Shown piece by piece: positions 4,563-7,303 of a DNA stretch of 10,796 bases (the stretch's first letter is position 1; every line of letters starts with the position of its first letter). Under the pieces are notes generated by a model that was given only the letters and a program-made list of their open reading frames with translations, did no database searches and was not told where the DNA came from. The position numbers and the translations under genes are program-made. Source of the stretch: a virus (taxonomy: Duplodnaviria > Heunggongvirae > Uroviricota > Caudoviricetes); the IMG/VR virus record IMGVR_UViG_2690316318_000025, positions 1 to 10,796 of that record; one strand, written 5' to 3'.

Positions 4563-4925
4563 ATGGCTAGCGAACGCAGTACTGATGTGCAGGCATTTAT
4601 CGGGGAGCTGGACGGCGGCGTATTTGAAACCAAAATCGGCGCAGTTCTCAGTGAAGTCGCTTCCGGTGTGATGAACACGAAAACCAAAGGTAAGGTCTCG
4701 CTCAACCTGGAAATCGAACCGTTTGATGAGAACCGTGTGAAAATAAAACACAAACTCTCATATGTTCGCCCGACTAACCGCGGGAAAATTTCCGAAGAAG
4801 ACACCACCGAAACGCCGATGTATGTCAATCGCGGTGGTCGCCTGACTATTCTGCAGGAAGACCAGGGACAATTACTGACTCTTGCCGGTGAACCTGACGG
4901 AAAACTCCGCGCAGCAGGTCATTAA
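4563..4925 (+). CDS. yfdP: YfdP-like prophage protein, 120 aa, function unknown
   Basis: ATG at 4563 with GAGGAG RBS 8 nt upstream. The upstream in-frame extension of track ORF 4332..4925 has no RBS and a non-protein-like composition. The 120-aa length and position directly upstream of yfdQ/yfdR-like genes match E. coli CPS-53 yfdP as I recall it; not verified by alignment. Confidence 0.65.
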   Translation: MASERSTDVQAFIGELDGGVFETKIGAVLSEVASGVMNTKTKGKVSLNLEIEPFDENRVKIKHKLSYVRPTNRGKISEEDTTETPMYVNRGGRLTILQEDQGQLLTLAGEPDGKLRAAGH

Positions 4926-4990
4926 TATCGTTCTTAATTAACTGATTATTTATCTCATCACTGAATATCTTTATATAGTGAGGACTTATT

Positions 4991-5815
4991 ATGTCTCAGA
5001 ACTTAGACGCAACCGCAATTAATCAAATCCATGCCCTTATTTCTGCTCAGGGTGTTAATGAAATTATCAGTAAGATTGGTGCCGATGCTGTGGCATTGCC
5101 TGAGAATTTCCGCATTCATGATCTGGAAAAATTTAATTTAAATCGCTTCCGTTTCCGTGGTGCGCTTTCCACTGCCAGCATCGATGACTTTACCCGTTAT
5201 TCTAAAGATCTTGCAGATGAAGGCACCCGCTGCTTTATCGATGCCGATAATATGCGAGCCGTCAGTGTGCTTAACCTGGGTACTATTGATGAACCAGGTC
5301 ACGCAGATAACACCGCCACCCTCAAACTGAAAAAGACAGCACCGTTTTCTGCTCTGTTGTCTGTTAATGGCGAGCGTAACTCCCAGAAGTCACTGGCAGA
5401 ATGGATTGAAGACTGGGCCGACTACCTTGTGGGCTTTGATGCTAATGGTGACACCATTCAGGCAACCAAAGCGGCTGCGGCAGTCCGTAAAATCACAATT
5501 GAAGCAAACCAGACCGCTGATTTTGAAGACAATGACTTCAGCGGCAAACGCTCTCTGATGGAGTCTGTCGAAGCGAAAACCAAAGACATTATGCCAGTGG
5601 CATTTGAATTTAAATGCGTTCCGTTTGAAGGCCTGAAAGAACGCCCGTTTAAATTACGCCTCAGCATTATCACTGGCGATCGTCCTGTACTGGTTCTGCG
5701 CATTATTCAGCTGGAAGCGATGCAGGAAGAAATGGCTAACGAATTTCGTGATCTGCTTGTTGAGAAATTCAAAGACAGCAAAGTAGAAACCTTTATTGGT
5801 ACTTTCACCGCCTGA
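4991..5815 (+). CDS. yfdQ: YfdQ-like protein (DUF2303 family), 274 aa, function unknown
   Basis: ORF 4991..5815 (+), RBS GTGAGGA about 8 nt upstream. Length and N-terminus ([11 protein letters not shown]...) agree with my memory of E. coli YfdQ; not verified. Confidence 0.75.
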
Positions 5816-5943
5816 TTTCATTACTGCAAATGCCCCTGCGGGGGCATTTATGGAAACGTAATTAACTCAATAATCACCGGATGGTGAGAGCTTCCTTTTA
5901 GCAGAATTCAGCGCGGTGCAGCGCATATAAAGTGGAGAACGAA

Positions 5944-6480
5944 ATGTCATTTATTAAAACTTTTTCCGGGAAGCATTTTTATTATGACAAGATAAATAAA
6001 GACGACATCGTGATTAACGATATCGCAGTTTCCCTTTCAAATATCTGTCGCTTTGCAGGACATCTTTCACACTTCTACAGTGTCGCCCAGCATGCGGTGC
6101 TTTGCAGCCAGCTGGTGCCGCAGGAATTTGCTTTTGAAGCGTTAATGCATGATGCAACAGAAGCATATTGCCAGGACATCCCCGCGCCACTGAAACGACT
6201 TCTTCCTGACTATAAACGGATGGAAGAAAAAATAGACGCCGTAATCCGTGAGAAATACGGGTTACCTCCTGTTATGAGCACGCCAGTGAAATATGCCGAT
6301 CTCATTATGCTGGCAACCGAACGCCGTGATCTCGGGCTTGATGATGGCTCTTTCTGGCCTGTTCTGGAAGGTCTCCCGGCAACAGAGATGTTCAAAGTTA
6401 TTCCACTGTCGCCAGGCCATGCCTATGGGATGTTTATGGAACGTTTTAACGAGTTATCGGAGTTACGCAAATGCGCATGA
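5944..6480 (+). CDS. yfdR: HD-domain phosphohydrolase, YfdR-like 5'-deoxynucleotidase, 178 aa
   Basis: ATG at 5944 (MSFIKTF...) with GGAG RBS 5 nt upstream; the track ORF begins at an upstream GTG (5932). HD-domain motifs: H in SVAQHAV and HD in ALMHDATEAY. The 178-aa length matches recalled E. coli YfdR. Confidence 0.8.
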   Translation: MSFIKTFSGKHFYYDKINKDDIVINDIAVSLSNICRFAGHLSHFYSVAQHAVLCSQLVPQEFAFEALMHDATEAYCQDIPAPLKRLLPDYKRMEEKIDAVIREKYGLPPVMSTPVKYADLIMLATERRDLGLDDGSFWPVLEGLPATEMFKVIPLSPGHAYGMFMERFNELSELRKCA

Positions 6481-6821
6481 ATGTTTTCGAAATGGAAGGG
6501 TTTCTTCGCGGGAAATGTGTACCGCGAGATCTGAAAGTGAATGAAACAAATGCTGAGTATCTGGTGCGTAAATTCGATGAAGTACGTGCTGAGGCTCGCA
6601 ACGAGGGTATTAACTATACCGCAAGCCGTCTTGCTGCTGCTTTCAATCACGGATTTATCAATAAGCCTTTGGCTGAAGTTTTCGACGTTACACGCATGAT
6701 TCTGTCAGCAAAAGAAGAGTTAGCTAATGAATCGCATCCGATTGATGGCCTGTCCGGTGAATATGCAGAGAAATCCCTTGAAGAATGGGCGGAACGGCTT
6801 CGCAAAGGAGGCAGCCAGTGA
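6471..6821 (+). CDS. Hypothetical early-left protein (YfdS-like position), 116 aa
   Basis: ORF 6471..6821 (+). ATG 6471 with GGAG about 8 nt upstream; overlaps the yfdR stop by 10 nt. No recognisable domain; acidic and helical in character. Confidence 0.6.
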   Translation: MRMNVFEMEGFLRGKCVPRDLKVNETNAEYLVRKFDEVRAEARNEGINYTASRLAAAFNHGFINKPLAEVFDVTRMILSAKEELANESHPIDGLSGEYAEKSLEEWAERLRKGGSQ

Positions 6822-7303
6822 CTGGACATGCAGCAATCCTCGACATGTGCTGTGGCAGTCGCATGTTCTGGTTCGATAAGAATGACGACCGGGCGATATT
6901 TAGCGATATCAGAAAGGAAGAGCACACATTGTGTGATGGACGACGCCTGATTATCAGTCCTGACCTGATAGCTGATTTTCGTGCACTACCATTTGCAGAC
7001 GCATCCTTTTCGATGGTTGTATTCGACCCTCCGCATCTTGAGCGTGTTGGTGATAACGCCTGGATGGGAAAGAAATATGGACGGCTGAATAAAGATACCT
7101 GGCGTGATGATTTACGGCAGGGATTCAAAGAAGCCTTTCGTGTGTTGTGGCCATACGGCGTTCTGATTTTTAAATGGAATGAAACGCAAATACCTGTTCG
7201 CCAGATATTGGCACTGACCGACAGAAAACCTGTTATCGGTCAACGAACAGGAAAGGGTGACAAGACCCACTGGATTATTTTTATGAAGGAGGGCAACCAG
7301 TGA
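6818..7303 (+). CDS. Small SAM-dependent methyltransferase, probably an N6-adenine/N4-cytosine-type DNA MTase with a DPPH catalytic motif, ~161 aa
   Basis: GTG at 6818 overlaps the upstream stop (GTGA), with AAGGAGG RBS at 6804-6810. Alternative starts are ATG 6785 (track ORF) or ATG 6845. Motif I-like ILDMCCGSRMFW, acidic FSDI, and motif IV VVFDPPH. No adjacent restriction endonuclease candidate, so an orphan MTase. Confidence 0.6.
   Translation: MTGHAAILDMCCGSRMFWFDKNDDRAIFSDIRKEEHTLCDGRRLIISPDLIADFRALPFADASFSMVVFDPPHLERVGDNAWMGKKYGRLNKDTWRDDLRQGFKEAFRVLWPYGVLIFKWNETQIPVRQILALTDRKPVIGQRTGKGDKTHWIIFMKEGNQ

Follow-up and report, generated by a model that had tools for sequence, protein, structure and literature searches.

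The window analysed here, a 10,796-nucleotide (nt) stretch of viral DNA (IMG/VR record IMGVR_UViG_2690316318_000025), contains the immunity and early region of an Escherichia coli lambdoid prophage, and carries five early-left genes at positions 4563-7303, with yfdP, yfdQ and yfdR as their functional core. The yfdP-yfdQ-yfdR cluster is already known and its function is partly known, and the explanation which we favour, with confidence that is about even, is a takeover of host replication by YfdR together with YfdQ and a YfdS- or YfdT-type helper protein. Inhibition of the initiator of host replication has been documented for YfdR, and a role in the life cycle of the phage is as yet a prediction. 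The question shifts from the manipulation of the nucleotide pool, which was suggested in an initial annotation of the window, to what the new-fold pair formed by YfdP and YfdQ does.

The yfdP-yfdQ-yfdR cluster and its promoter

All five open reading frames (ORFs) of the cluster are present on the + strand:

4563..4925, +, yfdP: 120 amino acids (aa), 99% identical to YfdP of the K-12 prophage CPS-53; phrog_204, Pfam PF27127
4991..5815, +, yfdQ: 274 aa, DUF2303 (PF10065, E = 8e-92), 99% identical to K-12 YfdQ
5944..6480, +, yfdR: 178 aa, HD-domain protein of the 5'-deoxynucleotidase type, 98% identical to K-12 YfdR
6471..6821, +, yfdS-like small ORF: 116 aa, mosaic; phrog_614
6818..7303, +, orphan small class-I S-adenosylmethionine (SAM) methyltransferase: 161 aa from GTG 6818, DPPH motif

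The 98-99% identity with the K-12 proteins and the Pfam and PHROG assignments bear out the gene identities given in the initial annotation (YfdP, YfdQ, an HD enzyme, a small ORF and a methyltransferase). YfdQ covers the full length of the PF10065 profile (positions 2-269 of 269; 307.7 bits, gathering score 26.6), and YfdP was assigned to PF27127 via a cluster representative which is 99% identical to the YfdP of the window. For yfdR, the ORF of which opens at GTG 5932, ATG 5944 was taken as the startcodon, in agreement with K-12 and RefSeq. The methyltransferase is likely to start at GTG 6818 and not at ATG 6785, because GTG 6818 has an AAGGAGG sequence 7 nt upstream and a GTGA overlap with the preceding stopcodon, and because the homologues are 157-162 aa in length. 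Adjacent genes overlap by 10 nt (yfdR and the yfdS-like ORF), 4 nt (the yfdS-like ORF and the methyltransferase) and again 4 nt (the methyltransferase and the downstream ead gene, which is Ead/Ea22-like), and therefore the genes from yfdR to the Ead/Ea22-like gene were read as one translationally coupled operon.

The early-left placement proposed in the initial annotation also holds, as the five genes are the first ones behind a PL-type promoter with an operator, which are located directly downstream of the repressor gene:

3222-3896, +, S24-peptidase repressor gene (cI-like)
3908..3925, +, intrinsic terminator closing the repressor transcript (7-bp GC-rich stem, then a T run)
3935-3962, +, PL-type σ70 promoter (TTGACA-16-CATAAT, 11/12 consensus match)
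3942-3958, operator TGTACCCTTGAGATACA, overlapping the spacer of the PL promoter

The operator TGTACCCTTGAGATACA is a palindrome of the type also found in three OR-type sites (3137-3156, 3170-3189 and 3188-3204) located between the repressor and cro genes, and because this palindrome overlaps the promoter and matches the sites in the repressor/cro gap, the promoter at 3935-3962 is a repressor-controlled PL. A terminator is annotated at the equivalent place to 3908-3925 in phage Ayreon, and the cro-like gene and the early-right genes of the window are on the − strand. The host element is a lambdoid prophage of the CPS-53/KplE1, ST64B and LLS type. Its replication module (window 1-1277, − strand) consists of a helix-turn-helix/O-like gene followed by yfdN, without a helicase loader or P-type gene; such O-only replication modules are a recognised but little-studied class (PMC12315714). 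No Red/Gam-type recombination genes were found within the portion of the early-left operon covered by the window.

Conservation of the cluster was assessed in viral contigs around YfdQ homologues obtained with four queries, with YfdQ dereplicated at 90% identity and the flanks searched with the window's own proteins. Two sets of loci were compared, one with 61 near-identical E. coli-type loci (close) and one with 43 dereplicated, divergent clusters ranging from 99% to 29% identity (divergent):

YfdP: close 61/61; divergent 43/43, with 42 lying directly upstream in the same orientation
YfdR: close 61/61; divergent at least 15/43, within 2 kb downstream
YfdS-like protein: close 45/61; divergent 1/43
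Methyltransferase family of the window: close 3/61; divergent 1/43
Rv2179c-type exonuclease: close 17/61; divergent 5/43
PrtN-type protein: close 15/61; divergent 4/43
S24 repressor: close 31/61; divergent 18/43, each 1.7-4.4 kb upstream and in the same orientation

From this overview it is clear that yfdP-yfdQ is an obligate, widely conserved gene pair, with a synteny that persists down to 29% identity, and that yfdR is a frequent third member beside it. The pair was also present in annotated phages of Pseudomonas, Vibrio, Xanthomonas, Halomonas and Shigella, with YfdP homologues which are 34-58% identical to that of the window. Among 5426 complete E. coli genomes, 3536 (about two thirds) had matches to the 3.1-kb stretch of the cluster, which ranks it among the commonest prophage gene sets of E. 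coli; at least 80% of this stretch, i.e. with the methyltransferase included, was covered in only 103 of the 3536. Functional (plaque-forming or inducible) phages also carry the cluster, namely cdtI, Ayreon, 2H10, mEp460, the PhiR series and Stx2c-converting phages. While the CPS-53/KplE1 prophage of K-12 has the same gene order (yfdP-yfdQ-yfdR-yfdS-yfdT), it has lost the immunity region, PL and the leader, which are intact in the window, and in the window the C-terminus of YfdS is swapped and yfdT is replaced by the methyltransferase, followed by the Ead/Ea22-like gene.

YfdR and the inhibition of DnaA

The H...HD motif described in the initial annotation is present in YfdR, which differs from the K-12 protein by four substitutions, none of them at the motif residues: H54 and H73-D74 (numbered from GTG 5932) are unchanged, and align with the HD residues of PDB 2gz4 (E = 3e-13). 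The 5'-deoxynucleotidase type, which was also given there, agrees with the RefSeq name and with the match to phrog_318 ('deoxyribonucleoside 5' monophosphate phosphatase', E = 2e-109), and the HD metal-binding motif is shared with YfbR and other HD-domain 5'-deoxynucleotidases (EC 3.1.3.89), as well as with the proteins named in PHROG as T5 Dmp-type deoxynucleoside monophosphate (dNMP) phosphatases. Matches to Pfam YfbR-like and NCBIfam PRK03826 were weak, and the scores stayed under the curated cut-offs of both PF12917 (24.2 vs 25.9 bits) and NF003009 (19.9 vs 122). Judged by these comparisons, the window protein is a YfdR orthologue and not a YfbR equivalog. YfdR is a structural homologue of the 5'-deoxynucleotidase YfbR, but with a much lower nucleotide affinity (Zimmerman et al. 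2008, cited in PMC4776307) and with a reported second, protein-binding activity on DnaA.

In the initial annotation the role of the module was considered not to be established, which is outdated, since binding of YfdR to DnaA and inhibition of initiation have been published (PMC4776307). The segment yfdQ-yfdR-yfdS-yfdT was isolated as a multicopy suppressor of replication over-initiation (Noguchi & Katayama 2016, PMC4776307), and that study reports that purified K-12 YfdR binds DnaA domain I in a Phe46-dependent manner and is a competitor of DiaA and DnaB for DnaA. Multicopy expression of yfdQ and yfdR with yfdS or yfdT blocks oriC initiation in vivo, with yfdQ, yfdR and either of yfdS and yfdT being needed and yfdP being dispensable, and oriC replication is inhibited in vitro in YfdQRST-oversupplied extracts (PMC4776307). 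The authors proposed that in the ancestral phage the cluster served to switch off initiation in the host, in the manner of lambda P (PMC4776307). YfdR resembles lambda P and Bacillus subtilis SirA in being a mobile-element or developmental protein which binds DnaA and blocks initiation at oriC, and SirA uses the equivalent of DnaA Phe46, like YfdR (PMC4776307), but YfdR has no sequence relationship to either protein. Lambda P also differs in binding DnaA domain III and in loading DnaB, whereas the window prophage lacks a P-type gene.

We favour a takeover of host replication because of the identity with the K-12 proteins, the published DnaA binding and the genes found to be needed for inhibition, the presence of PL upstream and the operon packing; because yfdP-yfdQ-yfdR is constant in all 61 close loci, yfdP-yfdQ in all 43 divergent ones and an HD gene follows downstream in at least 15 of these; because functional phages carry the cluster; and because the replication module of the window prophage is O-only. 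On induction PL would fire and the early-left operon would be expressed, upon which YfdR, as an HD protein with weak 5'-deoxynucleotidase activity, would bind DnaA domain I at the Phe46 surface, which is normally used by DiaA and the DnaB helicase. YfdR, YfdQ and a YfdS/T-type small protein could then block initiation at oriC, and host replication resources would be left to a phage which encodes an O-type initiator only, without a helicase loader. The DnaA binding, the competition with DiaA and DnaB and the inhibition have been published for the K-12 proteins, which are 98-99% identical, and from these we infer the native role in lytic growth.

Several observations weigh against such a takeover. 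The replication phenotype was obtained with multicopy expression only, and the authors allow for an overexpression artefact; YfdQ was not seen bound to YfdR or DnaA in pull-downs; and deletion of yfdQRST had no effect on initiation or on hydroxyurea resistance (all PMC4776307). The latter is in part the dispensability without phenotype which the initial annotation had named as speaking against its own proposal. Furthermore, YfdP is the tightest-linked partner of YfdQ, yet is not required for inhibition, and because 28/43 divergent loci have the yfdP-yfdQ pair without a detectable YfdR homologue, the pair must have a function of its own.

The YfdP-YfdQ pair and the competing explanations

As stated in the initial annotation, YfdP and YfdQ are proteins without a known function, which is also how they are described in PMC12315714, and our literature search yielded no functional study of YfdP or YfdQ beyond PMC4776307. 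We infer that the two work together as one unit. The homology and structure searches suggested in the initial annotation gave the K-12 homologues for both and PDB 9o7m for YfdQ, whereas the structure models of YfdP and YfdQ matched no solved fold in a fold library which does not include 9o7m. PDB 9o7m ('YfdQ protein') is one solved entry of the YfdQ family, for which no paper was found in the literature search, and the peptides in it are of the type found in Xanthomonas phage CP2. Because this entry has 36 chains of one sequence, which is ~37% identical to the YfdQ of the window, YfdQ is probably active as a homo-oligomer of large size. At 50% identity the DUF2303 family falls into 1773 clusters, of which the 150 with the best scores are mostly ~265-288 aa in length; no domain fusions were found among the 150 best of the 1773 cluster representatives. 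Three apparent YfdP::YfdQ fusions (P0011, P0068 and P0160) were rejected, being single-member truncated hybrids which look like deletions, and a profile-profile comparison gave no support for YfdP having arisen as a part or a copy of YfdQ (probability 0.1). The surroundings of the pair in distant phages are recombination and replication genes, namely gam, RecT, exo and SSB genes in Ss-VASD, genes for a recombinase, for RNase T and for SSB in a Vibrio phage, and DUF1351 and ERF in Xanthomonas CP2.

With regard to the two genes downstream of yfdR, the yfdS-like ORF is identical to K-12 YfdS over residues 1-36, followed by a mosaic junction into a phrog_614-type C-terminus, and has no Pfam match. 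The methyltransferase belongs to phrog_954 ('DNA methyltransferase') and is matched over its full length by REBASE-derived PADLOC models (MTase_II, E = 6e-74; oMTase, E = 1e-49). Its DPPH motif, already reported in the initial annotation, is invariant in the family: both ILDMCCGS (SAM motif I) and VVFDPPH (motif IV) are invariant across 18 homologues, and D9, G13 and D30 are invariant as well. The family has more than 6600 matches, for which the annotation goes no further than class I SAM-dependent methyltransferase. A length of 161 aa leaves no space for a separate target-recognition domain, and no curated DNA-methylase family was matched, with a sub-threshold Methyltransf_11 as sole Pfam match; among the homologues, PF01555 was found in one 294-aa, 59%-identical protein only. 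Sequence and profile searches of the PDB gave generic class-I similarity only (E > 0.1), without a solved relative, and no restriction-endonuclease gene is located beside the methyltransferase, which has the YfdS-like ORF and the Ead/Ea22-like gene as neighbours. On sequence grounds it is plausibly an orphan DNA methyltransferase. Its low co-occurrence (3/61 close and 1/43 distant loci) uncouples the methyltransferase from the HD enzyme, and both it and the YfdS-like ORF ride along in the operon as mosaic genes that can be exchanged, outside the mechanism of the HD enzyme.

The main rival to the takeover of host replication, which we consider possible but clearly less probable, is that YfdP and YfdQ form an autonomous two-protein unit for transactions on phage DNA, such as binding of single-stranded DNA or DNA ends, or as an accessory to replication or recombination, with the link of this unit to YfdR and DnaA being secondary. 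This is consistent with the strict synteny of the pair and with its recombination and replication neighbours in the distant phages, the 36 chains in 9o7m are in the size range of DNA-binding proteins which form rings or filaments, and deletion of yfdQ leads to mild sensitivity to methyl methanesulfonate (MMS) and H2O2 (PMC4776307). However, DNA binding by YfdP or YfdQ is a prediction only, and a recombination role was deemed unlikely in PMC12315714, as the genes co-occur with complete Rec modules.

Less likely than such a DNA-transaction unit are two further explanations. That the HD nucleotidase works together with the methyltransferase to alter the dNMP pool or the state of DNA modification, and that they so protect against restriction or nucleotide-targeting defence, was the proposal of the initial annotation, and now appears unlikely: the methyltransferase family is present in so few of the close and divergent loci and of the matching E. 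coli genomes that the two enzymes do not hold up as a functional pair, the nucleotide affinity of YfdR is much below that of YfbR (PMC4776307, citing Zimmerman 2008), no PADLOC model matches YfdP, YfdQ, YfdR or the YfdS-like protein, and literature searches found nothing which ties the cluster to defence. The proposal does draw on the naming of YfdR-type proteins as 5'-deoxynucleotidases, on the conserved DPPH and the REBASE-derived PADLOC matches of the methyltransferase, which as an orphan enzyme could plausibly provide self-protection, and on Pseudomonas phage pAN, where an HD gene adjoins a DNA cytosine methyltransferase gene. Slightly less likely still is that the genes are 'morons' which benefit the lysogen through host stress tolerance and not phage growth. 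Deletions of CPS-53, yfdQ and yfdS raise the sensitivity to H2O2, acid or MMS (cited in PMC4776307), SrsR binds the yfdO/yfdP spacer and affects stationary-phase yfdPQ mRNA, and the cluster is retained in the decayed K-12 prophage, but the genes are located behind a repressor-controlled PL, and their conservation in fully functional temperate and lytic phages of Gammaproteobacteria points to a role in the phage cycle.

A structured leader RNA in the place of N

There is no N gene between PL and yfdP, and the ORFs in 3897-4562 have no Pfam match, with PHROG matches restricted to function-unknown families. One of these, phrog_3651, matches an ORF at 4296-4751 (−) which runs antisense into yfdP once extended to GTG 4751, and another, phrog_33599, matches a leader ORF at 4348-4548 (+); both families were probably built from spurious phage gene calls. 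Compared with shuffled sequence, the 590-nt leader has a much more stable fold (z = -6.2), and it is built as a mosaic from non-coding pieces that are conserved. This N-less leader is a candidate for RNA-based control of early-left transcription. Three features were distinguished:

4001..4189, with a 3' extension to ~4258, +, element A: conserved structured non-coding element in the slot of lambda nutL/N
4379..4425, +, terminator-like hairpin: 13-bp stem, then UCUUUUU (-21.3 kcal/mol, z = -3.7)
4425..4515, +, near-perfect hairpin: 21-bp stem (-55.8 kcal/mol, z = -7.55), just 5' of the yfdP ribosome-binding site

Element A is also present in the P1 locus (L004, 2500-2695) and the phiV10 locus (L005, 2488-2676), and its covariance model R1 scored 212 bits in the window, 208 in P1 and 191 in phiV10. 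It consists of long invariant stretches broken by hairpins which differ between phage groups yet keep their pairing: 98% of cells were paired, compared with 26-45% when the partners were slid, and six pairs, in two hairpins, had changed on both sides. The G-U pairs fit the + strand only, and the lengths of insertions and deletions do not follow a multiple of three. In the long-range helix no sequence varies, so that pairing there is predicted only. Folding energy alone was unexceptional (z = -1.5 on the + strand, +0.2 on the − strand), and because the thermodynamic test is weak the support for element A is comparative and not energetic. No Rfam match was found in 3960-4580 below E = 5, permissive filters included.

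Matches to element A were found in 1833/5426 complete E. coli genomes, with plasmid records accounting for 554 places; RefSeq has no annotation for it there. The trnI-ban spacer of the reference P1 genome is filled by element A, likewise unannotated. For the 107 viral loci with enough flanking sequence, a tRNA(CAT) gene lies immediately before each of the 23 P1-type copies and tRNA-Arg(TCT) immediately after each of the 23 phiV10-type ones, and there were 61 lambdoid copies without an adjacent tRNA gene. As no copy was detected by covariance model R1 at 88 distant YfdQ loci, element A is not tied to yfdPQ outside the enterobacterial lambdoid phages. The 3' piece of the leader with both hairpins accompanies yfdP elsewhere too, among others in ST64B and in phages of Klebsiella. 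The hairpin at 4425-4515 is a possible RNase III or attenuator site, a reading of the yfdP leader hairpins for which the lambda N leader is the analogue.

Element A shares with the put RNA of phage HK022 the lack of an N gene and the position of a structured RNA ~30 nt past the predicted PL start and before a terminator-like hairpin, and a put-like mechanism has been proposed for the related phage LLS (PMC12315714). It differs from put in its length (~190-260 nt vs ~70 nt), in having no second copy in the PR operon, and in being located beside tRNA genes in non-lambdoid phages as well. No similarity was found between the leader and HK022 positions 24000-30000, a stretch in which the presence of putL is unconfirmed, and the window has no second copy of the leader. 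Element A may be a put-like antiterminator or a processed stable RNA. A wider reading, which we regard as rather doubtful, combines an undescribed PL-first class of structured RNAs, shared by lambdoid, P1-like and phiV10-like phages and acting as protein-independent antiterminator past the 4379-4425 hairpin or as stable RNA released by tRNA-processing enzymes, with, independently of this, a giant assembly of new fold formed by YfdP and YfdQ.

Two other parts of the window deserve mention. In the early-right operon, Rfam matches above the gathering score were obtained for C4 antisense RNA (1791-1878, −, 82 bits) and isrK (1903-1979, −, 64 bits), in or beside a Rha/antirepressor-like ORF (1503-2339), and a P1/P7-type antisense immunity module is thus located within a lambdoid prophage. 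The early-left operon ends with genes for an Rv2179c-like 3'-5' exonuclease (8949-9524, +) and a PrtN-family protein (9534-9842, +). Homologues of both are present in Pseudomonas phage vB_PstS-pAN, together with YfdP, YfdQ, an HD phosphohydrolase and a DNA cytosine methyltransferase which is unrelated to the methyltransferase of the window, and the combination of YfdP, YfdQ, HD protein, exonuclease and PrtN appears to be a set of early-left genes which recurs among the Gammaproteobacteria.

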